From Nitrospirota bacterium (GTDB lineage Bacteria; Nitrospirota; Thermodesulfovibrionia; Thermodesulfovibrionales; Dissulfurispiraceae), in NCBI GenBank assembly GCA_040758355.1, contig JBFLWF010000043.1, positions 1 to 15,798 on the forward strand: a stretch of DNA of 15,798 nucleotides. The letters run 5' to 3'. The notes below the pieces were generated by a model. The model was not told the DNA's origin. It was given only the letters and a program-made list of their open reading frames with translations, and did not search any database. Below are positions 1-15,552 of the stretch, one piece after another (the first letter of the stretch is position 1; each line of letters begins with the position of its first letter). A program made the translations under genes and the position numbers.

Positions 1-55
1 CGGACTTGAAGCCGCGTTGTTTGAGGTTATTATGTGCTGTAGTTGCGGTTTGCAT
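1..55 (-). CDS. Possible 5' start of a gene running off the window (MQTATTAHNNLKQRGFKS...)
   Basis: ATG at 55 with an open frame to the edge and a weak SD. Too short to identify. Confidence 0.25.
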   Translation of the reverse strand, partial: MQTATTAHNNLKQRGFKS

Positions 56-225
56 TGCCTTGTTGTCTGATTTGCCCAGTTTGTTAACTCCTTGTCAAAA
101 ACTATTCGCTGTTATTGAACAGCCTTCATATGATTTAAAGTCTATCTAAATCAGAATAACAAAAACCGTTCCGACAAAAAATGATTTAAATCATGTTTAT
201 CCAAAATCTTTAATCTGATGGAATA

Positions 226-1251
226 TTAGTATCCTTCCAGCTTGAAATCGGAAAATACAATCCTGTATGTCACGACTGCCGTGAATAAAAAATATAAGAC
301 CAACGATATTATGGCAAACCTTCGCTGGACGGAAGGAAGGATTTCCGATAAGCTCTGGATGTTCCTGAACGGCATTACCACGCCGACACCCATGCCCAGA
401 ACAGAGCCGCCTAAAATTGTTATATAGAGCAAATAGCCGATGTATCCGTATTCCCTCTGGAGTATACAGAACGGGCAGTGGTGCGTCGGCAGCTCATAGA
501 AATAAAGGGAAATGAATGATATGAGCGATATAATCGATATGATGAATGTAACAGCACTTGCCAGAGAAAAAACATACCCGGTTAATTTCGAATTTCGAAT
601 TTCGAATTTCGAATTTTTAAGGAAACATATCCCTGATACAAACATGAAGGCCATGCCGAGATAAAACGCTATCTTCATCGGGATGCTCGGAAGTGCAGCG
701 ATCTCTGATGTAATGCCCCTTGTATCGGTACTGAAAAGGCTCCCGCAGCATGAGGTAATAACATCCGCCTTAAGCCTCAGGAGATAATTGGACTGAATTA
801 TCATCTCGGCTGTTACAAACAGTGCAATGACAAGAAGAAAGACGTATTTCTTCTTTATGAGCGGATAGTCGTATGCCCTGTTGTCTGTATAATTGAGAAT
901 AAGCCAGAGACCTGCAAGCAGAAAATTAACAACCTTCAGGATAAGCGTTGGATAGCCATAGTCATTCACATTGAGGGTGCCTGCTGCACACATTGCACCG
1001 ACAAAGAGCGAGTGTAGATTATCGGCAGTGTATATATACAGGAAAAGGGAGATGAGCTGAAAACCGAGGACATAGGCCAGGATGGTCGAAATGAGATACG
1101 TCCTTCTTTCGAGGTTTAACTGCAGTTCGCTGCCGCTTTTAATATCCCATTTTCTTACTATCCGAAGCCCAAAATACGAAGAGTAGAGAATTAGAAAAGT
1201 GATAAGGAATGACGACAAAAGAAGTGCGATTATTGCAGGATGGAATATCAT
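226..1251 (-). CDS. Polytopic (~8 TM) membrane protein of unknown function with Cys/His motifs (GAMCAAG, TSCCG, HHCPFC)
   Basis: 341-aa ORF with about 8 hydrophobic segments. Starts 10 nt after the stop of the upstream ABC ATPase, as the last gene of the NosL/ABC cassette. Confidence 0.85.
   Translation of the reverse strand: MIFHPAIIALLLSSFLITFLILYSSYFGLRIVRKWDIKSGSELQLNLERRTYLISTILAYVLGFQLISLFLYIYTADNLHSLFVGAMCAAGTLNVNDYGYPTLILKVVNFLLAGLWLILNYTDNRAYDYPLIKKKYVFLLVIALFVTAEMIIQSNYLLRLKADVITSCCGSLFSTDTRGITSEIAALPSIPMKIAFYLGMAFMFVSGICFLKNSKFEIRNSKLTGYVFSLASAVTFIISIISLISFISLYFYELPTHHCPFCILQREYGYIGYLLYITILGGSVLGMGVGVVMPFRNIQSLSEILPSVQRRFAIISLVLYFLFTAVVTYRIVFSDFKLEGY
584..616. repeat. Heptamer tandem repeat (AATTTCG)x4 plus partial copy inside the membrane protein gene
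   Basis: Four perfect AATTTCG units at 584-611, then AATTT. Encodes NSKFEIRNSK on the minus strand. Confidence 0.95.
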
Positions 1252-1261
1252 AAAATTTTAT

Positions 1262-1933
1262 TCATTCTGCTACCATGCCGTCTCTAATATTAATAATCCT
1301 GTCCACAACATTAGATTCGCAGACAAGAGGGTCATGGCTTGCTATAAGGATGGTCTTTCCTTCTCCTTTGAGCCTGCCGATTATATCCATGAACTCATGG
1401 GATAGTTTTGTATCGAGGTGGGCAGTTGGCTCATCTGCAATTATAACCGATGGGTTGTTAATCAAAGCCCTCGCTATTGCTATTCTCTGTGTCTCGCCTC
1501 CCGAGAGCCATTCAACCTTTGATAATGCCTTGTTCGAGATATTAAACATGTCGAGAGTCTCCAACGCCCTTTTCTTTAAAGGATAATATGTCTCACCCAT
1601 CGGATATGCAGGCAGCATGACATTCTCCAGTGCAGTTATGCCTTTAATGAGATTGAACTGCTGGAAGATAAACCCGAATGTCTTCCGTCTTATTCCTGTG
1701 AGGAACCGCTCCGGCAGGCTTGTGACTTCCCTGTCCACAAGCATAATCCTGCCGGATGTAGGTCTTGTCATGCAGCCGATGATGCTTAAAAGCGTGGTCT
1801 TTCCCGAACCGCTCGGTCCTTTGAATACCGTAACCTTATTTGCTTCTATGGAAAGGCTCACGCCGTTGACCGCAGTAAATTCATTGGGCTTTTCTGCATT
1901 AAATGTCTTTTTTATGTTTATAAGCTCTATCAT
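1262..1933 (-). CDS. ABC transporter ATP-binding protein, LolD/MacB-like
   Basis: Walker A GPSGSGKTT, GFIFQQFNL Q-loop, LSGGE signature, IIADEPT Walker B, SHD switch. Start moved from 1972 to the ATG at 1933 (MIELINIKK), which overlaps the permease stop as ATGA. Confidence 0.93.
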   Translation of the reverse strand: MIELINIKKTFNAEKPNEFTAVNGVSLSIEANKVTVFKGPSGSGKTTLLSIIGCMTRPTSGRIMLVDREVTSLPERFLTGIRRKTFGFIFQQFNLIKGITALENVMLPAYPMGETYYPLKKRALETLDMFNISNKALSKVEWLSGGETQRIAIARALINNPSVIIADEPTAHLDTKLSHEFMDIIGRLKGEGKTILIASHDPLVCESNVVDRIINIRDGMVAE

Positions 1934-3060
1934 CTCATTACAGAATCCGGATCGATTGTCGCTGCCCTCCACGAGGGGATAATGGTCGCTACTGTATAAG
2001 GGACAACAGTAAGAAAGAATAATGTCGAGACCTGATAGGGGTCAATAAACGGAGTCAGCTTAAACTCCGGATAAAGCACAGACCATCCCTTAAGTACAGG
2101 CTCAAAAAGAGAAGATGATGCAAAGAACACATGGAAATACGCAAGGATTATACCCGCAATAAACGATGTTACGGACACCACCGCGCCTTCCCAGAACTTC
2201 ATGAGTATCACATCCGATGTTTCCCATCCGATTGCCTTTAAAATACCGATCTCCCTTTTTTCCTCTGCGCTCAAACCCGATGCCTTATCCCATGCAAACA
2301 CGATAAATGCCATCACAGCGCCAGACATGATTACGATTACAATGCCGCCGCGCCAGTTAAAGACAGTGTCATATGTCCTCAATATCTCGTTTTTAGTGAT
2401 GACCCTTGTATCTGGATATATCTCCGTTATCTTCCTCGTAATGGTGTTTACCTCTCTCTGGTTTCTAACTTTGACAGTTAAATCCGTAGCATATTCCTTT
2501 GATATTCCGAAGAGCCTTCTGAAATCCTTCTCTGCAAGCAATATAAGATCGGATGATATAAGCTCCGATTCCGGAGAAAGCACTTCTCTTATCTTGAAAT
2601 TAACCAGAGCGCCGTCATATGCCATAAACGGCATTATGTCTCCTTCATAGGCAAGGCGGCTCCTCGAAATGCCTTTGCCGATGGCAATATCTCCCTGTCC
2701 GTATTGAAAGTCATCGGGAACAATCAAGGTATAATTTGCACCGGCTATGGGGTCGAAATAATATCCCCAGAGCCTTCCCTTTATCGAACCTATACCCCTT
2801 ATGCCTTTAATCTTATCGATATATCTGATTGGAATCAGGTCATGTCTTCCTGCAACAACCCTCTGCACCGTCATCTCCGGTGCATCCTTCAAAATAATGG
2901 ATGCCTCTTTTTTTATTGCATGGGTAAAAAACATAACGGATGATAGAACGAATACTATGAGGGTATAAACGAGGAACAGGGCAATATTCTTCCCCTTCCT
3001 CCTTAAAAGGGAAGACAGGGTGAAGTCTATTAAATTCCTATGTTTATCGATCCATTTCAT
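1930..3060 (-). CDS. FtsX/MacB/LolE-like ABC permease
   Basis: N-terminal TM, large extracytoplasmic domain, then EKREIGILKAIGW and C-terminal PSWRAATIDP motifs typical of the FtsX-like permease family. Confidence 0.9.
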   Translation of the reverse strand: MKWIDKHRNLIDFTLSSLLRRKGKNIALFLVYTLIVFVLSSVMFFTHAIKKEASIILKDAPEMTVQRVVAGRHDLIPIRYIDKIKGIRGIGSIKGRLWGYYFDPIAGANYTLIVPDDFQYGQGDIAIGKGISRSRLAYEGDIMPFMAYDGALVNFKIREVLSPESELISSDLILLAEKDFRRLFGISKEYATDLTVKVRNQREVNTITRKITEIYPDTRVITKNEILRTYDTVFNWRGGIVIVIMSGAVMAFIVFAWDKASGLSAEEKREIGILKAIGWETSDVILMKFWEGAVVSVTSFIAGIILAYFHVFFASSSLFEPVLKGWSVLYPEFKLTPFIDPYQVSTLFFLTVVPYTVATIIPSWRAATIDPDSVMR

Positions 3061-3111
3061 AGTTTTTACTTATTCTAATGTTAAATGTTAAAAATATCCT
3101 ATAAAATCGCC

Positions 3112-3426
3112 TTACTTCTCCCCCCTCACTTTTATATTTTTATATATATGATCAGAAGGCATGACAATAGAGCCTGACGGGAAATGTTCAAAAGATAACG
3201 GGCTGTCCTGAAAAGGTGTGTTTAAATCGGCCTGGGATAAATGCCTCGTATATCTCGCCTCTGTAAAAAGGGCAAGGTCTGTAAGCTCAAGCCTCCTTAC
3301 CAATTCAGCCTTTTCGGCAAGAACAAATCTGTTCCTAACCTTTGTATACGAAGCATGAATAAAGAGGAGGCACATTATAACCAGATTTATGCCCAAATAG
3401 ATAAAAAATATACCGGACTTTCTCAT
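3112..3426 (-). CDS. Small membrane-anchored hypothetical protein (104 aa)
   Basis: Single N-terminal hydrophobic segment, then LTDLALFTEARYTRH...PFQDSPLSFEHFPSGS. Co-oriented, starting 18 nt after the upstream NosL-like gene. Confidence 0.75.
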   Translation of the reverse strand: MRKSGIFFIYLGINLVIMCLLFIHASYTKVRNRFVLAEKAELVRRLELTDLALFTEARYTRHLSQADLNTPFQDSPLSFEHFPSGSIVMPSDHIYKNIKVRGEK

Positions 3427-3444
3427 CTGCTATTGGCTCACCAG

Positions 3445-3951
3445 CTATTCAAGTGTGTGCAAGACCTCCTGGGTTATATCCTTAAACCTCAGAATCTTTT
3501 TCCCTTTATGGTCCTTCATAAATCCCCTGGCGTCTTCTTCCTTTTCAAAAGGGATTGGCTCTTTGCCCATTGGCCCGTACACATCGCTTCCTACAACATA
3601 ATACGCCTTGTATCCGTCTATCAGCGTTAAATTATAGTAATCGGTCGCATATATGGAATCAATATCGGATTGATTCTTTGAAGGGTTATACTTTGCCATA
3701 TTAAAGTAATATTTGAACATGTCCTTTGCGCCGTCAAAAAAGGCATAAGAGCCGTCCCTGAATACTATCTCTGCGACCCAGTCAGGATATTTTGTCACAA
3801 ACATCCCGCAGACAGGGCATTTGTCCTTGGGAGAAGGCTTTACAGGCTTTTTCTCTCCGGCGTATGCGTAAAAGCAAGAAGTGAGAAGTGAGAAGTGAGA
3901 AGTAACAAAAAACAAGATAATAATTGTAAAAATTAAATTTTTAACTCTCAA
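3445..3951 (-). CDS. nosL: NosL-family periplasmic metal-binding protein (copy 1)
   Basis: Signal peptide, CPVCGM, FFDGAKDM, AYYVVGSDVYGPMG and PF...A..F...H.GK motifs of the NosL family. TTG start with GAGGAG 7 nt upstream. The symbol denotes the family, not a proven role in N2O reductase maturation. Confidence 0.88.
   Translation of the reverse strand: MRVKNLIFTIIILFFVTSHFSLLTSCFYAYAGEKKPVKPSPKDKCPVCGMFVTKYPDWVAEIVFRDGSYAFFDGAKDMFKYYFNMAKYNPSKNQSDIDSIYATDYYNLTLIDGYKAYYVVGSDVYGPMGKEPIPFEKEEDARGFMKDHKGKKILRFKDITQEVLHTLE
3877..3903. repeat. Heptamer tandem repeat (AGAAGTG)x3 plus 6/7 copy in the NosL-1 signal peptide coding region
   Basis: agaagtg agaagtg agaagtg agaagt at 3877-3903. Encodes TSHFSLLTS. 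Confidence 0.95.
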
Positions 3952-3976
3952 CTCCTAACTCCTCACTCTTAACTGT
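3942..3976. repeat. Degenerate heptamer array (5 units, consensus TAACTCY) overlapping the SD and start codon of NosL-1
   Basis: taactct caactcc taactcc tcactct taactgt. The minus strand reads ACAGTTA AGAGTGA GGAGTTA GGAGTTG AGAGTTA. Confidence 0.8.
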
Positions 3977-3979
3977 ATT

Positions 3980-4498
3980 TTAGTGCTTATGCTCCATCGT
4001 TTTTTTCTGTTTCATCATCTTCCTTTTTTCCCTTATCATCTTTGTATCATGATACATGTCCTCGTATGCAGCCTTCATTGCATCATCAAATGTTGCGAGA
4101 TTGCCGCCGTTTTCCTTAATAAACTTCTCTGCATCATCCTTTTTCTCGAATGCCCACTTTGCCCTTTTCGTCATTACGCCTGTTTTGTTTCCTCCAATTA
4201 CCCATGAGGCCTTTTCAGCGTCAATGGGCTTCTTTGTGTTGTAGTCTCCAACCATAACTGCCTTTGGCGTCTTATCGATGTTTAAGGCAAGGTCAATGGC
4301 TGCACAGTGGATGCTGCATGTCCCTTCTGTTGTCCCGTCATCGTATTCGATATACACTCTGCTGTGCCCGAATTTCTCCCTGTCCATGCCGCAGTACTTG
4401 CATGACGGATGCTTTTTAATGTCATCCTGCGCAAAGGCAGCTACGCTCAATAAAAGACATAATACCAGAATAACTGCAAAAACAATGCTCCTTTTCAT
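3980..4498 (-). CDS. nosL: NosL-family periplasmic metal-binding protein (copy 2; CxxCGM plus CSxHC)
   Basis: Sec signal ending AFA-Q, CKYCGM, CSIHC, DY....IDA..A.WV.G...GVM....AF....DA..F....GG pattern, Met/His-rich tail. AGGAGG SD upstream. Confidence 0.85.
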   Translation of the reverse strand: MKRSIVFAVILVLCLLLSVAAFAQDDIKKHPSCKYCGMDREKFGHSRVYIEYDDGTTEGTCSIHCAAIDLALNIDKTPKAVMVGDYNTKKPIDAEKASWVIGGNKTGVMTKRAKWAFEKKDDAEKFIKENGGNLATFDDAMKAAYEDMYHDTKMIREKRKMMKQKKTMEHKH

Positions 4499-4556
4499 AC
4501 CTTCCTCCTAATATTTTTTTATCCGCGCCACTTACCACCCCCTATTTCCCTGCCTA

Positions 4557-4565
4557 ATTATATCA
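4557..4565 (-). promoter_or_regulatory. Putative extended -10 promoter (TGATATAAT) for the NosL/ABC cassette
   Basis: The minus strand reads TG-A-TATAAT in the 78-bp intergenic region, about 60 nt upstream of the NosL-2 ATG. Confidence 0.6.
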
Positions 4566-4576
4566 TATAGTCTAAC

Positions 4577-5683
4577 TCATCCAATCCTCTTTCTGAACCT
4601 GAGCGAGCTTAGAGTCATGACAATTATACCAAGCAAAAGCAGCGACAACATCTGCGGCCATAGAATAGCAATGCCATTGCCCTTCAAAAATATGCCCCTT
4701 ATTATCACGAGGAAGTATCTGAGGGGGTTTATGTAAGTTCCATACTGGATTATCTCCGGCATATTCTCTATCGGAAACATAAAACCAGATAGCAAAACAG
4801 CAGGTATATAAAAAAGGAATGTTGCCATCATTGCCTGCTGCTGGGTTCTTGATATGGTGGATATGAAAAGACCTATGCCCAACACTGACAGGAGATAGAT
4901 CGCTGTAGCTAAAGGCATCAGTTGAATAGGGCCTTTTATTGGAATATTGAACCAGAACACGCCCACCATTGTCACAAGGAATACATCGAAGAAACCTATG
5001 ATGGCAAAGGGAATGGTCTTGCCGAGCATCAATTCTATGGGCTTTAATGGTGTGACCATGAGCTGCTCCATGGTGCCTATCTCCCTTTCCCGGACAACTG
5101 CCATCGATGTAAGCAAGAGGCAGGTGAGCATTATCACTATGGCAATAACTCCCGGCACATTGTAATTCCTGCTCCTCAAATCCGGGTTATACCATGCCCT
5201 TGTGCGCAGATCGATCTTTACAGGCTCAATCTTTTGCGCTCCCATGTCCTTTGTATATTTCATGATGATCCTGTTTGCATAATCCATGGCAACCGTTGCA
5301 GTATTGGAGTCAGTCCCGTCAACGAGTATCTGCACTTCTGTCTGCCTTTTATTCTTTAAATCCGATGAAAAACCCCTGTTTATCTGAATAGCAGCGGTTA
5401 TCCTTCCCCTGTCAAGCAGTTCCTGCATCTCGTCAGGAGAGTCGGCAAAGTACCCGATATTGAAATATCCTGATGACTCCAGCCTTCTCATGAGTTCCCT
5501 GCTCTCGTACGATTTATCGAGGTCGTATATTGCAGTTGAGATGTTGTTCACATCCGTTGTAACTGCATAGCCAAAGGCGAGCAACTGCATTACAGGGGTG
5601 AAAAAGACAATGGCGATCATCCTCCTGTCCCTGAAGACCTGGATGAATTCCTTTATTATCATCTGCTTTATGCGCTCAAACAT
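4577..5683 (-). CDS. ABC-2 type permease, YbhR-like
   Basis: KEFIQVFRD N-terminus, VDGTDSN, WYNPDL, REREIGTMEQLMVTP and LLSGFMFPIENMP motifs. Confidence 0.93.
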   Translation of the reverse strand: MFERIKQMIIKEFIQVFRDRRMIAIVFFTPVMQLLAFGYAVTTDVNNISTAIYDLDKSYESRELMRRLESSGYFNIGYFADSPDEMQELLDRGRITAAIQINRGFSSDLKNKRQTEVQILVDGTDSNTATVAMDYANRIIMKYTKDMGAQKIEPVKIDLRTRAWYNPDLRSRNYNVPGVIAIVIMLTCLLLTSMAVVREREIGTMEQLMVTPLKPIELMLGKTIPFAIIGFFDVFLVTMVGVFWFNIPIKGPIQLMPLATAIYLLSVLGIGLFISTISRTQQQAMMATFLFYIPAVLLSGFMFPIENMPEIIQYGTYINPLRYFLVIIRGIFLKGNGIAILWPQMLSLLLLGIIVMTLSSLRFRKRIG

Positions 5684-5685
5684 TT

Positions 5686-6795
5686 TTAAATAATCCTCTT
5701 TTTGAATTTTTTATTTGCAAGCGCAAACACCATCAAACCAAAAAATGTTAAAAGGATCGTCTCAAAGATTAGAAATTTAAAAGTATTCCCTTTAAGAAAT
5801 ATTCCTTTCAGTATCGATACGAAGTACCTTGCAGGTATGATGTGAGTTATCATTTGCAAAGGCTTCGGCATATTGGCTATAGCATACATAAATCCCGAGA
5901 GGAGAAACGCTGGGAGGAATGTAACAACCATTGAAATCTGGCTTGCAACAAGCTGTGATTTTGCGGCAATGGATATGAGTATTCCGAGGCTGAGGCCTCC
6001 AAATAAAAATATGGATGAAAGCACAGCGAGTAGAAGGAGGTTCCCCTGCAAGGGAACTTCAAATACAAAAACAGCCATTATGACAGACAGTGCAACATCG
6101 ACAAATCCGATAAAGAAATAAGGCAGCAGTTTTCCTATGATAAGTTCCGGCGTCTTTACAGGAGTTGATATCAACTGCTCCATAGTCCCCCTCTCCCACT
6201 CCCTCGCAATGGTTAATGATGTAAGGAGTGCTGCAATCACTGCCATTATCACTGCAATGAGTCCTGGAATTATGTAATTTCTCGATTTCAGTTCAGGGTT
6301 ATACCATACACGCACACGGGGGTCTATGAGAGGGGTTATCCTGCCCCCCTTTATCCTCTGCGAATACAGCTCTGATATTGCTGTTATATATCCGAGTGCT
6401 ATGGTTGCTGTGTTTGAATCGCTTCCATCAACAATTACCTGAAGCTCGGCATTTTTTCCTGTCTTTATGTTTTTCGAGAAGTCATTTGGTATCCAGACTG
6501 CAACCTGTGCTTTCCCGGAATCAAGGTATTTATCAATGTCTCTGTGGTCATCTGCATTGGCAACAACCGTAAAATAGTTAGATTCCCTGAACTCGGCAAC
6601 AAGCTCCCTGCTCAGGCTGCTTCTGTCCTGATCATAGACAACAGTTCTGAGATTGTTCACATCGAGTGTTATTGCATATCCAAAGATAAATAGGAGTATC
6701 ACAGGCATCATGAATGCCATTGCAAGGCTTAGTGGGTCTCGCCATATTTGAATTATCTCCTTCCTGGCTACTGCCTTTATCCTCAAAAATTTCAT
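5686..6795 (-). CDS. ABC-2 type permease, YbhS-like
   Basis: RKEIIQIWRDP, VDGSDSN, WYNPEL and AREWERGTMEQLISTP motifs. Paralogue of the adjacent permease. Confidence 0.93.
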   Translation of the reverse strand: MKFLRIKAVARKEIIQIWRDPLSLAMAFMMPVILLFIFGYAITLDVNNLRTVVYDQDRSSLSRELVAEFRESNYFTVVANADDHRDIDKYLDSGKAQVAVWIPNDFSKNIKTGKNAELQVIVDGSDSNTATIALGYITAISELYSQRIKGGRITPLIDPRVRVWYNPELKSRNYIIPGLIAVIMAVIAALLTSLTIAREWERGTMEQLISTPVKTPELIIGKLLPYFFIGFVDVALSVIMAVFVFEVPLQGNLLLLAVLSSIFLFGGLSLGILISIAAKSQLVASQISMVVTFLPAFLLSGFMYAIANMPKPLQMITHIIPARYFVSILKGIFLKGNTFKFLIFETILLTFFGLMVFALANKKFKKRII

Positions 6796-6815
6796 CTGAA
6801 AAATACCTCTAATCC

Positions 6816-6881
6816 GTCATTCCCGTGTAAACGGGAATCCAGTTCTTTAGTCCTCTGGATTCCTGCTTTCGCAGGAATGAC
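6816..6881. repeat. Inverted dimer of a CGTC/GTCATTCC-type palindromic REP-like element
   Basis: Unit 1 is GTCATTCCCGTGTAAACGGGAATCCAG (6816-6842). Unit 2 on the opposite strand is GTCATTCCTGCGAAAGCAGGAATCCAG (6881-6855). Each contains an ATTCC-N10-GGAAT hairpin with an 8-bp stem and 4-nt loop. Confidence 0.88.
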
Positions 6882-6926
6882 ATTTTCATTTCCCTTTGTA
6901 TCTTTGTAAAACATGTGGGTTTCATA

Positions 6927-7853
6927 TTATGCCTCTTCTATTAATGTCACAAATACATCTTCAAGCGATGGGGGAATCTTTTCAATCCCTGCTACCCTGA
7001 TATTTGACGATTCCAGTATTCTTTTAACTCTCGGTATACCACTCCTCGCATCCGCTACAACCGCATGCAGGAGGTTTCCAAAAATCGCTGCTTCTATTCC
7101 CTCCTTCTGCAGTATCTCCATCGCCTCCACAAACCTGTCAACTTCTATCTCTAAAACATTCTGCTTCATGTGTTCCCTTCTCAATTCATTGGGTGTGCCT
7201 TCGGCAATGATTTTCCCTCTGTATATGAGCGCAAGTCTGTCGCAGTAATCAGCCTCGTCCATATAATGTGTCGTAACAAATATAGTAGTGCCTGCCTTTG
7301 ACATGTCGTATATGAGGTTCCAGAAGTTGCGCCTCGAAATAGGGTCAACCCCTGATGTGGGCTCATCAAGGAATATTATGGGAGGTTCATGTAAAACAGC
7401 ACACCCGAGGGCAAGCCTCTGCTTGAAACCGCCTGGAAGCGTCCTCGTTATAGCATCCTTTCTATCTTTAAGCCCTGCCATTTCTAAAACCCACTCCATC
7501 CTCTCTTTTTTCCTGCTGTTTAAAACTCCGTAAATACCGCTGAAGAAGCCTATATTTTCCTCAACCGTGAGATCATCGTAAAGTGAGAATTTCTGTGACA
7601 TGTAACCTATGGTCTTTTTTATCTCTTCGGACTCCTTCATGATGTCATATCCTGCCACAAAGCCATTTCCGCTTGTGGGCAGCAGGAGGCCACATAGCAT
7701 CTTTATTGTTGTCGATTTTCCTGCGCCGTTCGGGCCGAGGAACCCGAAGACCTCTCCGCGCTTAACAGCTAAACTAATGCCGTCAACAGCCACAAAGTCC
7801 CCGAACTTCTTTGTCAAGCCCTCAATCTTTACTGCTATGTCTTCGCTTCTCAT
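6927..7853 (-). CDS. ABC transporter ATP-binding protein (YbhF/DrrA-like, second ATPase)
   Basis: GPNGAGKST, GYMSQKFSLY, variant LPGG signature, FLDEPTSGVDP, TTH switch. Confidence 0.95.
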   Translation of the reverse strand: MRSEDIAVKIEGLTKKFGDFVAVDGISLAVKRGEVFGFLGPNGAGKSTTIKMLCGLLLPTSGNGFVAGYDIMKESEEIKKTIGYMSQKFSLYDDLTVEENIGFFSGIYGVLNSRKKERMEWVLEMAGLKDRKDAITRTLPGGFKQRLALGCAVLHEPPIIFLDEPTSGVDPISRRNFWNLIYDMSKAGTTIFVTTHYMDEADYCDRLALIYRGKIIAEGTPNELRREHMKQNVLEIEVDRFVEAMEILQKEGIEAAIFGNLLHAVVADARSGIPRVKRILESSNIRVAGIEKIPPSLEDVFVTLIEEA

Positions 7854-7862
7854 CTCTTGGCC

Positions 7863-7889
7863 CGTAAGGGGGACTTTGTCCCCCTTACG
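7863..7889. repeat. Perfect 12-bp intergenic hairpin between the two ATPase genes
   Basis: CGTAAGGGGGAC-TTT-GTCCCCCTTACG. Confidence 0.85.
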
Positions 7890-7925
7890 AAAACCCCCTT
7901 TTTTAAATTTAATGAATCGATATTA

Positions 7926-8873
7926 TTAGTTTTTTGCACCTTCTTTTGACTCAAGAAAAGCTATTTTTGAAATAAATATGTCTTCAACAGAAGGGAGAAT
8001 CCTTCTGTAGTCCCTAACATCTATCTCCTCATCCCTTAATCTATCTATGACCTCTGTGGCAAGCCCCATTTCCGCAATAGCAATATGCAATCTGTCACCG
8101 TAAACACTCACGCTTTTGACAATATCGATGCCTTTAACAATTTCAGCAGCCCTCCTTGGGGCATCTGTTAAGAGCTCTATCACAGGCAGTCCAAATGAGT
8201 TTTTAATCCCCACAGGATTGTCCTCCATAAGTATTTTGCCTTTATGGATAAGTCCAATCCTTGTGCACCGCTCTGCCTCATCAAGATATGCAGTGGAGAC
8301 AAAAATAGTCACACCCTCTCTCAAAAGGTCATAGAGTATCCTCCAGAAATCCCTCCTCGAAACAGGGTCAACACCGTTTGTCGGCTCATCGAGGAAAAGG
8401 ACTTCAGGCGTATGTATTAATGCACATGCAAGCCCTAACTTCTGCTTCATGCCACCCGAAAGCCTTCCTGCAAGCCTTCCTTTAAAGGGCGTAAGATTGC
8501 TAAAACCGAGCAGCCTGTCGATCCTTGCAGGACGTTCTTTCATCGGCACTTCATAAAGGTCTGCATAGAACATTATATTTTCAAAAACCGTAAGGTCTTC
8601 GTAGAGTCCGAACCTCTGTGACATATAGCCGATCTTCTCCTTAATCCTCTCACCCTCATTTAAAATAGAATGGCCTGCAACCCATGCCTCGCCTGAAGTA
8701 GGTTCCATTATCGCTGTAAGAAGCCTCATGATTGTCGTCTTACCTGCACCGTCAGGACCAACAAGCCCGAATAATTCGCCTTTTTTAATTTCGAGATCGA
8801 GATTATCAACAGCAATGTTGTCGTCAAATACCTTTGTAAGGTCAGATGTATTTATTGCAACAGCTTCATTCAT
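7926..8873 (-). CDS. ABC transporter ATP-binding protein (YbhF/DrrA-like, first ATPase)
   Basis: GPDGAGKTT, GYMSQRFGLY, LSGGMKQK, FLDEPTNGVDP. The switch region reads STAY instead of xTH. ATGA overlap with the HlyD gene. Confidence 0.95.
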   Translation of the reverse strand: MNEAVAINTSDLTKVFDDNIAVDNLDLEIKKGELFGLVGPDGAGKTTIMRLLTAIMEPTSGEAWVAGHSILNEGERIKEKIGYMSQRFGLYEDLTVFENIMFYADLYEVPMKERPARIDRLLGFSNLTPFKGRLAGRLSGGMKQKLGLACALIHTPEVLFLDEPTNGVDPVSRRDFWRILYDLLREGVTIFVSTAYLDEAERCTRIGLIHKGKILMEDNPVGIKNSFGLPVIELLTDAPRRAAEIVKGIDIVKSVSVYGDRLHIAIAEMGLATEVIDRLRDEEIDVRDYRRILPSVEDIFISKIAFLESKEGAKN

Positions 8874-9853
8874 CTCAACATTATCCTCACATCAGCAGGC
8901 ATGCCAGGTTTTAACTCATCGTTTATATTCTTCACACTCACCTTCACACCAAAAACGAGCTTCACCCTCTCCTCCTGCGTCTGGACATTCTTCGGCGTAA
9001 ACTCAGCCTCTGACGATATATATGTCACAGCGCCTTCATATTTTTTCCCGGGATAGGAATCAGTTGTAATCTCCGCCTTTTGTCCGAGTTTCACAAGTCC
9101 GAGTCTGTCTTCCTTCACATAAACCTTTATCCATGGATTTTCGAGGTCTCCTATGGTATAAACAGGAATACCTGGTGCAACAGTCTCTCCAAGTTCAATG
9201 TTCTTTCTCATTATTACACCCGATACAGGCGCATAGAGTATCGTGTCTTTCAATCTCTCTTCAGATGCCTTCAGTGCTGCCTCTGCCTGTCTCACACGAT
9301 TCTCTGCAGCCCTTATCTCTTCCTTCCTCGGCCCTTCTTTTACAAGGCTCAATGCCTCAAGCGCCTTTTTATGCTGTGATGTAGCAGTATCATAGACCTT
9401 CTTTGCCGTATCCATCTGCTGGGCTGATATTGCGCCGTTTTTATAAAGGACCTCCGCCCTCTCATGATCTTTTTTAGCCTTAATCAGCTCTGCCTCGGCA
9501 TATTTAACATTCGCAGTTGCCTGCTCAATCTCCTGAGGCCTTGAGCCTGCCTTTAGTTCCTGAAGCCGTGTTATAGTCTCATTCAGATATGCCCTGTGCT
9601 GCGCCACCTGACTTTCAACCTCTGCGCTGTCAAGAATTGCAAGTTTATCCCCTTTTTTAACCTTTTGACCTTCCTCTACCAGAAGCTCCACTACCCTTCC
9701 CGATGTCTTGAATCCCATATTCACTTCCGTCACCTCCACATTCCCGGAAACAGTGAGCACCCCTTGCTCCTGCTTGCCGCCGAACCGACTTATCAGGAAA
9801 ACTGCCACGCCTATTAAAACAATAATTCCTGCGATTAATAGTTTCTTTTTCAT
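8870..9853 (-). CDS. HlyD-family efflux periplasmic adaptor (YbhG-like)
   Basis: N-terminal TM, SGRV..L.VEEG..VKKG lipoyl half, long coiled coil, APVSG, AEFTPKNVQT and LKPGMPAD motifs. Confidence 0.93.
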   Translation of the reverse strand: MKKKLLIAGIIVLIGVAVFLISRFGGKQEQGVLTVSGNVEVTEVNMGFKTSGRVVELLVEEGQKVKKGDKLAILDSAEVESQVAQHRAYLNETITRLQELKAGSRPQEIEQATANVKYAEAELIKAKKDHERAEVLYKNGAISAQQMDTAKKVYDTATSQHKKALEALSLVKEGPRKEEIRAAENRVRQAEAALKASEERLKDTILYAPVSGVIMRKNIELGETVAPGIPVYTIGDLENPWIKVYVKEDRLGLVKLGQKAEITTDSYPGKKYEGAVTYISSEAEFTPKNVQTQEERVKLVFGVKVSVKNINDELKPGMPADVRIMLR

Positions 9854-11172
9854 TTAGATGCCTCCTCGTATATATCTTCGCCAATAGCCCTTCTCAAAGA
9901 TGCTATGGCTATGTTTTTATCGTATATTGCCTGCAAATAGTCTGTCTCAGCCCTTAAAAGCATAGTCTGTGAATCAATCACATCCGTGCTTGTACCCGAA
10001 CCAGTCTCATATCTCAGAACCTCTATCCTCAGATTTTCTTTTGCAGTCTCGACAGCCTTTTGCAAAACCCCTATCCTCTCACCGGCATTTTCTATGTTCA
10101 GATATGAATCCTTTATCTCACGGATTATATCGAGCCTCAAAGACCTCTCTTCTTCCCTTACTTTCTCCATCTCCTTTTTCTCTTTACTGATTTCCGACCT
10201 TATAAGCCCTCCATCAAAAATAGGTACAGAAAGCCTCAATGCAAGGTTCCAGTTTTCTTTGAACTCAAAACTATCTCCTGACCTTTCAGAATATTCGCTG
10301 CTCAGATAAACGATTGGAAGCCTTTTGCCCTGTGCGAAATTGACCTTTTCCTCAACAACCTTCTTTTTCTTTGAAACAGCATTGTAATCGGGTCTCAGAG
10401 AGAATGCCCTGTTAGTGGCTTCTTCAAGGGCAGGATATTTGTCTGCCGGCGAATTTTCATGGACAAGGGATATTTTTCTGTTAATGTCCTCTATTCCCAT
10501 AAGCGTCTTTAAAAGCTCATATGAACTCTCGATGCTGTTCCTTACAACAATGGCATTCTGTTTTGCATGGGCAAGTTCTACCTCTGTCTTTAATAACTCG
10601 ACCTTTGGTACAGTGCCTGCCTTAAGGAAAAGCTCCACATTCTTTTTATGTGCCTCGAGCTGTTTTACCGATGCCTCGTTTGCATCGAGGAGCTTCTCGA
10701 GCTGATATATCTTGTAATAGACATTTGTGAGGTTATAGATGAGGTCCTGTTTGCTCATACGGAACATGTCTTCTGCGATGGATTTTTTGATCTCTGCAAT
10801 TGTTACTCCGGCATCAAGCCTTCCTCCTCTGTATAAGGGCAGTATAAAAGAAACTCCAAAATCGTATATATTGCTGTCGAACTCAGGGAAACCGGAGCCC
10901 TTAAGGGGCGAGCCTGAAATGGGAGTTATCGGTGAGGCATAACGGTACCTTGTTGCCCCGCTGTTGAAATCCAGACGCGGCATTTTGTTTGCCTTTGCCT
11001 CGCTGATCCCATAAGTTCCAATTTCAACATCCTTGCTTGACTGTATAATCCTGGGATTATTCTTGACGGCAAATTCGATAGCGTCTGAAAGGGTATAGGA
11101 TGTTTTATTCATCTCTGCATACGCTGTGCTTGACACAAATAACAGTGATATAAAAATCAACAGCTTCTTCAT
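9850..11172 (-). CDS. TolC-family outer membrane efflux protein
   Basis: Signal peptide MKKLL...AYA-E. Two OEP repeats (PLYRGG and PIFDGG; LFLKAG and RYETGSG). Start set at ATG 11172, with AGGAGG upstream, rather than 11196. Confidence 0.92.
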   Translation of the reverse strand: MKKLLIFISLLFVSSTAYAEMNKTSYTLSDAIEFAVKNNPRIIQSSKDVEIGTYGISEAKANKMPRLDFNSGATRYRYASPITPISGSPLKGSGFPEFDSNIYDFGVSFILPLYRGGRLDAGVTIAEIKKSIAEDMFRMSKQDLIYNLTNVYYKIYQLEKLLDANEASVKQLEAHKKNVELFLKAGTVPKVELLKTEVELAHAKQNAIVVRNSIESSYELLKTLMGIEDINRKISLVHENSPADKYPALEEATNRAFSLRPDYNAVSKKKKVVEEKVNFAQGKRLPIVYLSSEYSERSGDSFEFKENWNLALRLSVPIFDGGLIRSEISKEKKEMEKVREEERSLRLDIIREIKDSYLNIENAGERIGVLQKAVETAKENLRIEVLRYETGSGTSTDVIDSQTMLLRAETDYLQAIYDKNIAIASLRRAIGEDIYEEASK

Positions 11173-11186
11173 TGCAACCTCCTGAA

Positions 11187-11205
11187 AAGTGAACATTCAC
11201 TTACT
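11187..11205. promoter_or_regulatory. Palindromic putative TetR operator between tetR and tolC
   Basis: AAGTGAA-CA-TTCACTT at 11187-11202. The minus strand GTAAGTGAATGTTCACTT resembles the site at 11848-11867. Confidence 0.65.
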
Positions 11206-11219
11206 TAATAACTAAAAAA

Positions 11220-11834
11220 TTATTTGACTGACAGGCACTTCTCGAAATTTCTCCAAAGCTTCATTCCTTCATCCACAAGCGAGAATGAAAAACCGCTCAA
11301 TGACCACTTCATTGTCAATATCTGTATCATTCCCATAAACATCAGGGCGGCTGAAGAGTGTTCCATATCCTTTCTTATCAGACCGGCCTTCTGGCCTTCC
11401 TTTATAAGCGATTCTAATTTGGCAGAATATAAACCGATTGTGTTTAAAAGCTTTTCTTTTAGATTCTCTTTACCTATGTGCATCTCCTCCGAGAATATAA
11501 GCCGCGGAATCCCTTCATTCCTATCGATGTAGTCGAGGTGAAGCATAAATAGTCTCTTGAGCCGTGCGAGGGCAGAGGCATCGGTCATTACCGAAACAGC
11601 ATCGAGATTACGCAAAAGTCCTTCCCCGATCTTTTCCACGGTACCCTGAAGTATTTCATCCTTACTATTAAAATGCCTGTAGAGATTTGCCTCGGAAATA
11701 CCTACCTCTTCGGCTATTGCCGCCGTAGTAAGAGACTTGACCCCGCGTTTGGCGATAATCCTCAGTGCAGCCTCCACTATCTGGTCCCTCCTTATATCCC
11801 CGCTAAGCCTCGAACCGTTTTTAATCATTTCCAT
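11220..11834 (-). CDS. TetR/AcrR-family transcriptional regulator
   Basis: HTH region IVEAALRIIAKRG...LTTAAIAEEVGISEANLYRHFNSKDEI. Start is probably ATG 11834 (or 11828) after GAGGTGGAG. The GTG at 11867 abuts the -10 box and so lies upstream of the likely transcription start. Confidence 0.93.
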   Translation of the reverse strand: MEMIKNGSRLSGDIRRDQIVEAALRIIAKRGVKSLTTAAIAEEVGISEANLYRHFNSKDEILQGTVEKIGEGLLRNLDAVSVMTDASALARLKRLFMLHLDYIDRNEGIPRLIFSEEMHIGKENLKEKLLNTIGLYSAKLESLIKEGQKAGLIRKDMEHSSAALMFMGMIQILTMKWSLSGFSFSLVDEGMKLWRNFEKCLSVK

Positions 11835-11847
11835 TCTCCACCTCTTT

Positions 11848-11867
11848 GTAAGTGAGTATTTACTCAC
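11848..11867. promoter_or_regulatory. Palindromic putative TetR autoregulatory operator over the transcription start
   Basis: GTGAGTA-TT-TACTCAC at 11852-11867, within GTAAGTGAGTATTTACTCAC and directly adjacent to the -10 box. Confidence 0.75.
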
Positions 11868-11896
11868 ATTATAAGAAAATGAAAATCTCCTGTCAA
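11868..11896 (-). promoter_or_regulatory. Consensus sigma70 promoter of the tetR-efflux operon
   Basis: Minus strand TTGACA (11896-11891), 17-bp spacer, TATAAT (11873-11868). Confidence 0.88.
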
Positions 11897-11908
11897 GTAT
11901 TTTTTTAG

Positions 11909-13525
11909 TTATTCCTTTTTCTTCCAGTACGGATTGGAGAGGTCTTCAAAGGCTGTGATTGCTGCGACGGCTCCATGCCCAACAGCAGTGGCTATCTGCT
12001 TAATACCGCCGGTCACATCACCTGCGGCATATACCATGTGCATGGATGTCCTCTGCCTTGAATCAACCTTGATATATCCTTCGGAATCGAGCTTAAGGTC
12101 GAGCATCTTTGCGATCTCATTATTAGGCACATATCCTATGGCAACGAATACTCCTTCAACTTCCAAAACCTTGATGGAATTATCTTTGAGATTCTGGAGT
12201 CTGACACCGCCAACATGGTCTTTGCCTGTTATCTCCTTTACCACTGTATTCCAATAAACAGGGATTTTATTATCCGATAAGCTCTTTTGCAGGAATGCCT
12301 CTGCCCTTAATTTATCCCCCCTGTGAACCAGTGATACATCTGCCCCTATGCTGTGAAGGTAAAGGGCATCGGTAACTGCTGTATTTCCGCCGCCAACAAC
12401 GATGACCTTTTTGCCGTCCTTAAAGAAATATCCATCGCATGTGGCGCAGTAACTCACCCCTTTTCCGTAAAGGCTTTTTTCTCCGGAGACATCGAGTTTT
12501 TTATGCTCTGCGCCTGTAGCGATAATTATGCCTCTTGCATTGTACGTCCTTCTGTTTGTCTTGAGCTCAAAGATATCCTCAACTCTTCTTATATCAACAA
12601 CGCCCTCACCTTCTGATATGTGTGAATACTGTAATGCCTGCTGGTACATTATATCCACGAGGGTCTTTCCTGCTATCTGGCTGAATCCGGGATAATTCTC
12701 AACGATTGGTGTAACAAGCACCTGTCCTCCAACAGTAGCCTTCTCAAGAATCACAGATTTCAGTCCGCTCCTTCCGGCATATATTCCTGCCGTGAGTCCT
12801 GACGGCCCTCCGCCGATGATTGCTAAATCAACATTAACAGTCTCCCCTGCTACAGGAGCAAATGCCTTTTCAATTGATGAAAGATTATGTATCTCCTCTA
12901 CAAATATCTCTGGAGGTTTTACTCCGGTGCCGATGGGAATATCGTTTATAACAGTGAATGGAACAGTGACGATATGATATTTGTCTATATAATCCCTGTT
13001 TTCATACATCTCTATTATCTCTGCTGTTATTAAATCAGGTTTCGCAATGGCAGCAGAGATTGCAGTCAGAGCCTGCTGCGGGCAATAAGGACAAGTCGGC
13101 GATACAAATATCTGAATATGCCTTGGCTCCTTCAATTCAAAAAGCCTCTTCAATGCCGCATCTGAAAGTATAGTTCCGTTTGTGGAGGCAAGCATTATGG
13201 CCATTATTAATGTGCGTGCCTCTTCGCCGAGCGGCGCACCTACATAGCTGACCCTATATTTATCCGGATTGATAAGGATGGTTGGGAACCTTGTTATTCC
13301 CTTCTTCTTCGTGGTTTCGTCGCCTGACTTATAAATTTTTACATCAATTTTATCCGTGAGTTTAGAGATTCCCTTTAAAAGCTCTGACGTGAATGCACTG
13401 TACTGGTCATCCTTGTCGTCTTTTACGAATACCTCCAGCAAAACCTTCTCTTTAAGCTCCTTGAAAGTATCCCTAAGAACCTTTTTTGTTTCTTCAGGAA
13501 GTATCTCGCCGAATTGTTTATCCAT
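11909..13525 (-). CDS. trxB: Thioredoxin reductase with fused N-terminal double thioredoxin-fold (PDO/AhpF-NTD-like) domain
   Basis: N-domain FVSPTCPYCP. C-domain GGGPSG, GKGVSYCATCDG, GGGNTA, HRGDKLRA, YAAGDVTG. Start ATG 13525 has AGGAG at 7 nt; the ATG at 13531 is too close to the SD. Confidence 0.9.
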   Translation of the reverse strand: MDKQFGEILPEETKKVLRDTFKELKEKVLLEVFVKDDKDDQYSAFTSELLKGISKLTDKIDVKIYKSGDETTKKKGITRFPTILINPDKYRVSYVGAPLGEEARTLIMAIMLASTNGTILSDAALKRLFELKEPRHIQIFVSPTCPYCPQQALTAISAAIAKPDLITAEIIEMYENRDYIDKYHIVTVPFTVINDIPIGTGVKPPEIFVEEIHNLSSIEKAFAPVAGETVNVDLAIIGGGPSGLTAGIYAGRSGLKSVILEKATVGGQVLVTPIVENYPGFSQIAGKTLVDIMYQQALQYSHISEGEGVVDIRRVEDIFELKTNRRTYNARGIIIATGAEHKKLDVSGEKSLYGKGVSYCATCDGYFFKDGKKVIVVGGGNTAVTDALYLHSIGADVSLVHRGDKLRAEAFLQKSLSDNKIPVYWNTVVKEITGKDHVGGVRLQNLKDNSIKVLEVEGVFVAIGYVPNNEIAKMLDLKLDSEGYIKVDSRQRTSMHMVYAAGDVTGGIKQIATAVGHGAVAAITAFEDLSNPYWKKKE

Positions 13526-13553
13526 AACCATTCTCCTGCACGAATAATTTTAT

Positions 13554-13599
13554 GTGCCTTAAAAATTATATCAAAAATAAAGGCACTTTATAGTATAAT
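13554..13599. promoter_or_regulatory. Divergent promoter region between the trxB-like gene and the deacetylase
   Basis: Minus-strand extended -10 TGATATAAT (13573-13565), plus-strand TATAAT (13594-13599), and inverted repeat GTGCCTT-N19-AAGGCAC (13554-13586). Confidence 0.6.
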
Positions 13600-13606
13600 C
13601 CTGACT

Positions 13607-14521
13607 ATGCAAGGGGTCGGATTTATATATGATGGTATTTTTCTGAAACACGAAACTCCGCAATGGCATCCTGAAACAAGCGAGAGACTGGTCTCTATTT
13701 TAAACCACCTTAAAAATTCTGGACTCTGGGAAAAACTCATTCATATAAAACCGCGAAAGGCAGATTATGAAAATATTGCCCTTGCACACAAAAAAAGTTA
13801 TATCGATAAGATTAAAAACTTCGGGGTAGGTTATCTTGATGGCGACACATTCATGTCAGAAAACAGCCTTGAAGCCGCTCTCTATGCAGCAGGCGCTGTA
13901 ATAGAGGCAATTGAAAGATGCAAATTAAGCGAGATAAGCAGGGCATTCTGTGCTGTGCGTCCTCCTGGACATCATGCGGAGGCGGACAGGGCAATGGGCT
14001 TCTGCATATTCAATAATATCGCGGTCGGAGCGAGATACGCCCAGAAAATCGGATATGAAAAAGTATTTATCATAGATTTCGATGTGCATCACGGAAACGG
14101 CACGCAGCATATATTCGAAAAGGACGATACAGTTTTTTATTTCAGCACGCATCAGTATCCTCACTATCCCGGAACCGGCAGGGAATCGGAAAGGGGTATA
14201 GGAAAAGGCGAAGGATTTACTTACAATGTCACTATGCGAGCAGGCTCAGGAGACAAAGACTATCTGCATGTCTATCACGACATACTCCCCGGACTTGTAA
14301 AAAATTTCGATCCCGGCATTATCCTCGTATCCGCGGGCTATGACATTCGGACCGAAGATCCCCTGTCTTCCATCAGAATTTCAAACGAAGGCATTCGCGG
14401 CATCGTGCAAAATATCCTGTCGAGCGCCGATAAACCCGTTATCTTCACGCTCGAAGGAGGATACGACCTCGATGCCCTCGCAGAATCTGTTAAGATTACG
14501 ATTGAGGAAATGATGAAATAG
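13607..14521 (+). CDS. Zn-dependent histone deacetylase-family (HDAC/AcuC/APAH-like) amidohydrolase
   Basis: HPE..ERL, RPPGHHA, GFCIFNN, DFDVHHGNGTQ, SAGYD...DPL, LEGGY. Start at ATG 13607 (304 aa); the 13514 extension crosses the promoter region and the divergent gene start. Confidence 0.95.
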   Translation: MQGVGFIYDGIFLKHETPQWHPETSERLVSILNHLKNSGLWEKLIHIKPRKADYENIALAHKKSYIDKIKNFGVGYLDGDTFMSENSLEAALYAAGAVIEAIERCKLSEISRAFCAVRPPGHHAEADRAMGFCIFNNIAVGARYAQKIGYEKVFIIDFDVHHGNGTQHIFEKDDTVFYFSTHQYPHYPGTGRESERGIGKGEGFTYNVTMRAGSGDKDYLHVYHDILPGLVKNFDPGIILVSAGYDIRTEDPLSSIRISNEGIRGIVQNILSSADKPVIFTLEGGYDLDALAESVKITIEEMMK

Positions 14522-14564
14522 TCATATTCTTTCTATGCATCTGTGGCAAGTCGTAACCAGTAAG

Positions 14565-14770
14565 TTACGCTTTAATCGGCTCAAAAACGTGTTCGACCTT
14601 ATATTTTGCGACCCTTCTCTTTTTTGCATGTTCTTTTTCTTTAACAGGTATGTCCTTATCTATAAAGTCAAGCTCAGCACCGTCGGGTATTGTGTCTGCA
14701 ATCTCAGGATGGTCGATCAAGTGTCTTGCAAAATCCCGATATTTCTTTCAACATGTTCTTTTTTAGTCAT
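14565..14770 (-). pseudogene. Frameshifted small gene, tentatively DUF5647-like, third gene of the TA-like locus
   Basis: ATG 14770 gives MTKKEHVERNIG and then an early stop. The -1 frame from about 14735 reads DFARHLIDHPEIADTIPDGAELDFIDKDIPVKEKEHAKKRRVAKYKVEHVFEPIKA* with TAA at 14567-14565. Starts 9 nt after the upstream stop. The family name is from recall only. Confidence 0.6.
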
Positions 14771-14779
14771 TTTCTTAGG

Positions 14780-15022
14780 CTATGTCGTCATTGTTGTAAC
14801 TTCAACCAGATGATGCTTCTTGCGGGCATCATCCACAATTCCTTCCAACCTTTCAGAGACAGCATCTTCAATCCAGTCCGCCCCGCACTGCGAGCATACT
14901 GTTGCAGGTACATCTCTTACTACGACCACTCCAAACCCTAAGTCAACAGTAAAGGTAGTCCTACCTTCCTTTTTTGTGCCGCCGCAAAGGGGACATTTAT
15001 CAGGCAAGTTCTTAACTGTCAT
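14780..15022 (-). CDS. YgiT-type zinc finger protein (MqsA-like antitoxin N-domain)
   Basis: CPLCGG...VVVRDVPATVCSQCG. AAGGAGG SD and ATGA overlap with the upstream gene. No HTH domain. Confidence 0.88.
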   Translation of the reverse strand: MTVKNLPDKCPLCGGTKKEGRTTFTVDLGFGVVVVRDVPATVCSQCGADWIEDAVSERLEGIVDDARKKHHLVEVTTMTT

Positions 15023-15333: not shown

Positions 15334-15440
15334 TTTGATTATACCTTATACGCAGCCTTATTATCAGCCGTTAAGATTATAGCTTAGACTTCGGATTCTT
15401 TTCACTTATTTTTACAATTTTCCGGCTTGCCGCCTTCCCG

Positions 15441-15522: not shown

Positions 15523-15552
15523 TGAAAAATGTGCATGGCGAATTTATTCAGT

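Follow-up and report, generated by a model that had tools for sequence, protein, structure and literature searches.

The window analyzed here is a 15,798-nucleotide (nt) stretch of a Nitrospirota genome (assembly GCA_040758355.1, contig JBFLWF010000043.1, positions 1 to 15,798), and our subject is a run of six genes on its minus strand, hereafter the module. In reading order, they encode two NosL-domain proteins (NosL-1, 172 amino acids (aa), 3980-4498; NosL-2, 168 aa, 3445-3951), a 104-aa protein (3112-3426), a permease of 376 aa (1930-3060), an ATP-binding cassette (ABC) ATPase of 223 aa counted from its ATG (1262-1933) and, last, a 341-aa membrane protein (226-1251). The co-orientation and tight packing of these genes, with gaps of 28, 18, 51, -4 and 10 nt, were part of an original prediction from the DNA letters and are confirmed at these coordinates. 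The -4 gap is an ATGA overlap if the ATPase starts at the ATG at 1933, which is the start adopted here; the open reading frame (ORF) listing places it at an upstream GTG, 1972. As also predicted, none of the 17 window ORFs scanned is nosZ, nosD or nosR. The interpretation we lean toward is that the six genes form a conserved, mobile, ATP-driven periplasmic machine that loads Cu(I) for several clients. That copper is involved, in either direction, we regard as highly probable.

The module recurs as a unit. Our locus set comprises the best 80 of at least 295 stretches with a relative of the 341-aa protein in species-representative genomes (78 genomes), labeled as Nitrospirota, Desulfobacterota-type deltaproteobacteria, Methylococcales and others; the carriers are mostly anaerobic bacteria. 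Sixty of these loci have enough flank for gene-content counts, and 56 are 14 kb or longer. Among the 60, the ATPase gene is present in 60, the permease and small-protein genes in 59 each and NosL-2 in 57, with a four-gene core in 59; at least two NosL-domain genes occur in 44 loci and all six genes in 41. In all 79 flanked loci, the gene immediately upstream of the 341-aa gene is that of the ATPase. The six genes thus stay together, and a loss of synteny, which would have undercut the idea of a joint system, is not what we see. No module match was found in 72,556 plasmid records. Two departures from the usual arrangement were observed: in G194, a 23S-IVP-type four-helix gene (L124:10899-11342) is inserted between the permease and ATPase genes, and in G145 a 341-aa-type gene (L125:9148-10146) stands with the rest of the module not nearby.

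Both NosL assignments hold up, with Pfam NosL (PF05573) scores of 57.7 bits for NosL-1 and 122.4 bits for NosL-2 against a cut-off of 24, and matches to the PDB NosL structures 7og7 (NosL-1, E 1.4e-4) and 7osf (NosL-2, E 3.7e-11). A study of S. denitrificans NosL (PMC8457098) assigns Zn binding to Cys59, Cys62, Cys88 and Asp92 and Cu(I) binding to Cys62, Met64 and Met145, each of the latter three being required for Cu delivery; it also describes natural variation of the Zn site and loss of function upon a Cys/Asp swap in the Cys3-Asp site. In NosL-1, the motifs C33-x2-C36-G-M38, C61-x2-H64-C65 and M109 form a predicted Zn-Cys4 plus Cu(I) site, of which six positions are kept in 36 of 36 relatives and H64 in 35. 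In NosL-2, the motifs are C45-x2-C48-G-M50, D73-x3-D77, M128 and H148, all kept in 61 of 61 relatives except D77 (60 of 61). The three Cu(I) ligand positions are therefore invariant in both families (C36/M38/M109, 36/36; C48/M50/M128, 61/61), and the Zn-site residues, Cys4 in NosL-1 (C33/C36/C61/C65) and Cys2-Asp2 in NosL-2 (C45/C48/D73/D77), are spaced as in NosL but differ from it in identity. The intact Cu ligand positions, together with the strong copper neighborhoods described below, agree with the earlier reading of the two proteins as soft-metal (Cu) chaperones. NosL-1 has a predicted Sec signal peptide and no lipobox. Because lipobox-like motifs, scored as a simple pattern in the 40 residues preceding CxxCGM, are nearly absent from both families (NosL-1, 0/37; NosL-2, 2/62), NosL-1 and NosL-2 are probably soluble and unanchored. 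The second NosL of the Methylococcales loci forms one domain of a larger protein of roughly 470 aa, and two loci of this group carry 470-540-aa NosL-domain proteins (L033:4656-6134, L074:12045-13448) beside TlpA and DsbD genes; the non-NosL remainder of one such protein has no Pfam match.

The motor belongs with the type VII ABC proteins. The permease scores 38.5 bits against the Pfam FtsX model (cut-off 25.5) and has the type VII (MacB/LolC/FtsX) layout of one helix, a periplasmic domain and three helices. In a Foldseek search, its AlphaFold2 model (predicted local distance difference test (pLDDT) score 80.8) matches LolE (E 5.5e-16) and MacB (template-modeling (TM) score 0.67), as well as LolC, YtrF, HrtB, BceB and FtsX, so profile and fold agree with the initial assignment to a MacB/LolDE type rather than an ABC-2 type. 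The ATPase matches Pfam ABC_tran, with LolD, FtsE and MacB as its nearest models at NCBIfam scores below cut-off, and its Walker A, signature, Walker B/D-loop and H-loop motifs are all intact. Type VII ATPases act by mechanotransmission at the periplasmic side, according to PMC8277102, and by analogy the module's motor may do the same. The Lol resemblance raises the thought of a private sorter pulling lipid-anchored NosL out of the inner membrane: LolE and LolC are the best fold matches, LolD is the nearest ATPase model, and one NosL of a nos-linked paralog of the module, described below, has a lipobox-like LAAC. We consider this very improbable, given the near absence of lipobox-like motifs among NosL-1 and NosL-2 relatives and the wide margin by which both proteins miss the Lol equivalog cut-offs (LolC/E, 47.7 vs 362.45; LolD, 172.3 vs 307.75). 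The 104-aa protein has a single N-terminal hydrophobic helix and a conserved C-terminal motif. It belongs to no Pfam or NCBIfam family, and its Atlas neighbors are all unnamed. Cys52 is present in 59 and His75 in 42 of 61 relatives, and a profile of the family does not recognize the 103-aa protein found at the same position of the nos-linked form. A complex prediction for the permease, 104-aa and 341-aa proteins returned 'no answer' (0.01 vs a mark of 0.32) and carries no weight either way.

The 341-aa protein has eight hydrophobic segments and is predicted to be an eight-helix membrane protein; its AlphaFold2 model (pLDDT 91.2, predicted TM score 0.90) consists of two four-helix bundles. Three predicted periplasmic loops carry the motifs GAM87C88, SC168C169G and H257H258C259PFC262. 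Lys and Arg residues are concentrated in loops 1, 3, 5 and 7 (17, vs 4 in loops 2, 4 and 6), a bias that places the Cys/His/Met motifs outside, and in the model Met87-Cys88, Cys168-Cys169 and His257-His258-Cys259-x2-Cys262 would thus face the periplasm. All eight motif residues are invariant in 80 of 80 close relatives. Among 103 distant homologs (the 310-350-aa members of the 150 listed), Cys88 is kept in 103, Cys168 and Cys169 in 102 each, Met87 in 101, Cys259 in 99 and His257 in 93, and Cys262 is replaced by Asp in 24, a swap that a metal ligand explains better than a redox disulfide does. The same swap bears on an alternative role for the protein, in thiol redox (DsbB/VKOR-like) or in sulfur relay; such an enzyme would keep the Cys residues of NosL and its clients reduced, or supply sulfide, with copper involved only indirectly. 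The outward placement of its CC and CxxC motifs and the presence of TlpA in 21/80 and DsbD in 8/80 loci are in keeping with such a role. We nevertheless judge it improbable, since the second CxxC cysteine is lost in those 24 homologs while Cys259, Met87 and His257 stay, since no DsbB, DsbD or VKOR match was obtained by Pfam, by PDB sequence or among the listed fold matches, and since it leaves the constant ATPase gene directly upstream unexplained. The invariant redox CxxC of a DsbB/VKOR-type enzyme is lacking among the distant homologs, although Cys262 is kept in all 80 close relatives.

Searches place the 341-aa protein in no Pfam or NCBIfam family; a PDB profile search gave no match at E ≤ 5, and the Atlas yielded only unnamed clusters. 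At the level of fold, Foldseek found nothing at E ≤ 0.001 and VIA-align only generic four-helix bundles (Z ≤ 13.7), results that fall short of showing a new fold. The family is large, with at least 5,133 clusters at 90% identity (8,000 candidates scored) and 1,190 representatives at 50%, and it extends into Campylobacterota, with members labeled Sulfurospirillum sp. and Sulfurimonas. Short in-frame tandem repeats of seven bases occur in two module genes: the one at 584-617 corresponds to eight extra residues, absent from relatives, in a loop of the 341-aa protein predicted to be cytoplasmic; the one at about 3878-3905 lies in the NosL-2 signal region.

How closely is the module tied to nosZ? 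None of the 80 module loci contains nosZ, nosD or nosY, and of the 78 genomes behind the loci, 50 were covered for nosZ, which was found in one of them (completeness not reported). We also used a class sample of 151 genomes from the host class, of which 41 carry the membrane protein, 38 of them in the window type. In this sample, nosZ is enriched among carriers (13/41 vs 5/110 non-carriers), and window-type carriers have nosZ in 10 of 38 genomes and give no nosZ match in the other 28. Many carriers therefore occur without a nosZ match, strict co-occurrence does not hold, and a displaced nos accessory locus was rejected as an explanation. The label 'nosZ-independent' in the original prediction fits the window and the family. 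It fails for the host genome itself (G000), which has a twin-arginine-translocation (TAT)-type nosZ on contig C4.

That nos cluster ends in a paralogous module, whose genes encode a NosL, proteins of 103 and 146 aa (the latter Cys-rich), another NosL, an FtsX permease, an ATPase and a 335-aa membrane-protein paralog that keeps all eight motif residues; a copper-type P-ATPase gene follows. The cluster as a whole (G000:C4:37037-52803; L086, L087) is of the Clade I TAT nosZ kind, with a split NosR whose C-terminal half is fused to NosD; it also holds SCO, transglutaminase-like and TlpA genes, its 146-aa protein is metallothionein-like, and a TonB receptor gene comes after the copper-type P-ATPase. 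This divergent form, 25-35% identical to the window module, ends nos clusters in G000, G078, G124 and G159, lies 13 kb from nosZ in G127, and is on a different contig from nosZ in G054 and G133. Counts of the divergent form are lower bounds because the class-wide profile search missed it in G000 and G127. The window type also enters a nos cluster: in G099 (99% complete), a full module with 52-68% identity closes a run of co-oriented nosZ-D-R-F-Y genes and contributes the only two NosL matches of the genome. The enrichment of nosZ and the presence of both forms inside nos clusters indicate that NosZ is likely a client, one of several, and the earlier suggestion of a client other than NosZ survives as a preference for several clients and is dropped as an exclusion of NosZ.

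Copper genes (CusA, CusB, multicopper oxidase, CopA, SCO or DsbD2-cupredoxin) flank 48 of the 80 loci and 38 of the 56 long ones; they are absent beside 18 of the 56 long loci and in this window. CusA alone occurs in 34 of 80 loci, and the 2.77-Mb host genome has one CusA match above the same 40% identity cut; the neighbor tested is a true CusA. SCO, PCuAC, CopA and multicopper oxidases are likewise among the module neighbors. In the class sample, 29 of the 41 carriers and 47 of the 110 non-carriers have a CusA/CzcA match. This frequent company of CusA, co-oriented upstream in 16 loci, would also suit a scavenger of Cu(I) or Ag(I) in anaerobes, in which Cu(I) is the dominant form, with metal stripped from periplasmic thiols or the membrane and fed to CusBA efflux, and HrtBA, a type VII haem exporter, is among the fold matches of the permease. 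We regard scavenging as unlikely, though it is the rival we take most seriously: 12 of 41 carriers, including G099 and G113, have no CusA/CzcA match; the nos-operon insertions and the adjacency of SCO and PCuAC point to supply; and every class carrier has a known or candidate copper enzyme, as set out below. CopA-type pumps, present in 5/5 genomes tested, are also present in 12/14 controls.

The same neighbors bear on the choice of metal. Another soft metal could be handled, either Zn for loading of NosL or Hg or Ag: NosL needs Zn, NosL-1 has a Cys4 site, and NosL shares its fold with the organomercury lyase MerB, as stated in PMC8457098. Against this stand the invariant Cu(I)-selecting Met ligands, the copper-type character of the recurrent neighbors (CusA, CopA, SCO, PCuAC and multicopper oxidase) and the lack of a mer gene among the annotated recurrent neighbor clusters, and we rate the possibility low, marginally below that of a thiol-redox enzyme.

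In the class sample, exported copper enzymes are commoner among module carriers than among non-carriers. At least one of nosZ, an O2-type haem-copper oxidase or a multicopper oxidase is present in 35 of 41 carriers vs 51 of 110 non-carriers; O2-type haem-copper oxidases, defined by a cut of E < 1e-89 (the weaker class was inspected in G000 only, where it reads as NorBC), account for 27/41 vs 37/110. The chaperone PCuAC shows no overall exclusion (8/41 carriers vs 22/110 non-carriers). Among oxidase-bearing genomes, there is a trend for the module to be present in fewer of those with PCuAC (4/18) than of those without it (23/46), and in G057, G113, G159 and G198 the two are close neighbors, PCuAC being no more than about 7 kb from the module. 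Six carriers, G145 among them, lack nosZ, O2-type oxidase and multicopper oxidase, and neither COX2 nor a cupredoxin was matched in three of the five such carriers tested. Three of the six have the module beside a gene for a secreted, His/Cys-rich protein of 360-400 aa with a C-terminal CxxCH. This protein (copies include L128:13451-14539, L135:5422-6525 and L136:1370-2569) has no PDB or NCBIfam match; it is accompanied by an FtsX ABC pair of its own, and a PCuAC or FtrD-like gene is often close by. It is encoded in 33 of 151 class genomes, including 6/6 of these carriers vs 7/59 non-carriers lacking the same three families, and the module occurs in 0 of 52 class genomes that lack all four (nosZ, O2-type oxidase, multicopper oxidase and CxxCH protein). 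Each of the 41 class carriers thus has at least one exported enzyme that is a known or candidate copper enzyme. This profile and the nos insertions fit supply better than detoxification, which had been offered at the outset as an alternative.

Several observations weigh against copper loading or limit what the profile can bear. First, the NosL-2 Cys2-Asp2 site is unlike the tested Cys3-Asp site, in which a Cys/Asp swap abolished function. Second, the window 104-aa protein has Ala/Ser at the Cys52/His75 positions, and the sister copy has Val/Ser. Third, the sister genome (G081) lacks NosL-1 at its module locus and has one NosL match genome-wide, so NosL-1 is dispensable in some genomes. Fourth, the placement of cusA, co-oriented upstream in 16 of 34 loci and within about 100 nt in 8, fits efflux equally. 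Fifth, multicopper oxidases taken alone are not associated with the module (12/41 carriers vs 30/110). Sixth, the 41/41 count is post hoc: the CxxCH protein, itself only a candidate copper protein, was chosen from three of the six carriers, leaving G057, G081 and G145 alone as independent cases, and the carriers include kin and are not independent of one another. Moreover, enzymes of these kinds occur in 58 of the 110 genomes that lack the module, which is therefore not required. Finally, in the host genome G000, NosZ is the only recognized copper enzyme and has its own module copy; no multicopper oxidase, plastocyanin-type or CxxCH protein match was found there, and its COX1-family gene reads as a NO reductase.

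With these points in the balance, Cu(I) loading is still the reading we prefer. On the observed gene set, synteny, type VII fold, ligand conservation and genomic associations, Cu binding, complex formation and the direction of transfer could be pictured as follows. Periplasmic Cu(I), probably from CopA-type export, would be held at the Cys/Met/His face of the eight-helix protein. A permease dimer with its ATPase, acting by mechanotransmission and without cross-membrane transport, would move Cu between this site and NosL; alternatively, ATP could drive release of Cu onto the client. The two soluble NosLs would each bind a structural Zn and one exchangeable Cu(I), as NosL does, and deliver the Cu to the host's exported enzymes, with the 104-aa protein as a putative accessory subunit. 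Clients would vary among hosts and may include NosZ, haem-copper oxidases, multicopper oxidases and the candidate secreted CxxCH protein. Of the original proposal of ATP-driven metal trafficking, synteny, fold, ligands and copper context have stood; nosZ independence of the host, detoxification as an equal alternative and the module's own promoter, discussed below, have not fared as well.

Among characterized systems, the module works most like NosDFY-NosL (PDB 7OSF series, 7ZNQ and 7OG7; PMC8457098), yet it is not a member. As in that system, a NosL-family chaperone with Cys-x2-Cys-x-Met...Met ligands is encoded with an ABC ATPase and permease that act from the periplasmic side, and some copies lie in nos clusters. 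By contrast, the module has a type VII permease in place of the ABC-2 permease NosY, no NosD, two non-lipoprotein NosLs with altered Zn ligands and two extra family-less membrane proteins, and it occurs mostly without nosZ. With LolCDE, MacB, FtsEX, HrtBA, YtrEF and BceAB it shares the four-helix permease with a periplasmic domain and a LolD/MacB-like ATPase; unlike these named type VII systems, it has metal-chaperone partners and scores below the curated cut-off of every member tested, making it a type VII ABC system that is none of the named ones. Unlike MacAB-TolC, its six genes include no adaptor or outer-membrane factor, as the HlyD and OEP genes of the window belong to a separate ABC-2 operon. 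PCuAC/Sco and CusF are, like the module NosLs are proposed to be, soluble or anchored Cu(I) carriers that serve exported enzymes, and MccL, from the Wolinella sulfite reductase cluster, is a NosL-type protein that works without NosZ. No coupling of PCuAC/Sco, CusF or MccL to a Cys/His membrane protein and a motor of the type VII ABC kind is known to us.

The module is real, conserved and, within the literature searched, uncharacterized, as originally supposed. Full-text searches, which covered neither subscription papers nor bioRxiv supplements and in which most hits were judged from their listing, found no description of such a system; a search on type VII ABC proteins, copper and mechanotransmission likewise gave no paper that concerns one, judged by title or abstract. 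The portions of PMC7558416 and PMC2886065 available contain nothing on the module. One probable mention exists: the S. cavolei nos cluster has a five-gene insertion after nosL, in the order hypothetical-permease-ATPase-hypothetical-hypothetical, which the accessible part of PMC4794192 lists as extra genes and for which it proposes no function. Judged from its gene order, this insertion is probably the module. PMC8457098 also notes that some NosL homologs lie outside canonical nos clusters.

More broadly, Cu loading of exported enzymes in sulfide-exposed anaerobes and methanotrophs is largely unexplained by known chaperones. If Cu(I) loading by the module is correct, it would provide a testable Cu route, extend MacB/Lol-type motors to a new task and define a new family of membrane metalloproteins, and its presence inside some nos clusters may matter for N2O removal under copper limitation. 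A more ambitious interpretation, which we offer tentatively, is that the module is the first type VII ABC system to traffic metal. It would then be a machine of anaerobes for copper insertion in general, spread horizontally and built on a new family of membrane metalloproteins, that can replace canonical NosL at N2O reductase and, in addition, matures a secreted haem-c/copper enzyme not yet described.

The start of the module is less sharply marked than its gene content. An extended -10-like site, TGATATAAT (4557-4565, minus strand), lies 59 nt upstream of the first ATG and was originally taken to be the module's own promoter. The site is present. Patterns of the TGATATAAT type occur three times in the window, against 1.04 +/- 1.03 expected, and three or more were reached in 17 of 200 shuffles, so the pattern is not clearly above chance. 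In addition, the stop of the upstream ABC-2 gene lies 12 nt before TGATATAAT, and no terminator-like site was found between the two. A promoter role is plausible from position, and the claim of an independent promoter is weakened accordingly. A related contig that covers 3980-4559 and nothing beyond fits a module edge there. In one metatranscriptome, short contigs extend across the permease and both NosL genes (share 0.06; these are contigs only, and DNA origin is possible).

The operon upstream of the module is separate from it. On the minus strand at 4577-11867 lie genes for a TetR regulator, an outer-membrane factor (OEP), an HlyD adaptor, two ATPases and two ABC-2 permeases, an operon that we take to be YbhGFSR-like. 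The sister genome G081 has 90% nucleotide identity across 223-3861 of the window, with 3862-11908 unmatched; there, the five module genes come directly after a thioredoxin-reductase-like gene, with neither NosL-1 nor the TetR-OEP-HlyD-ABC-2 operon between. Because the operon is missing beside the module in G081, it lies outside the system and was ruled out as a module part. The remainder of the window, 11909-15333, carries a thioredoxin-reductase/AhpF-like fusion and a histone-deacetylase-family gene, and within this region lies a DUF4258 and zinc-ribbon (MqsA-like) gene pair that is toxin-antitoxin-like.

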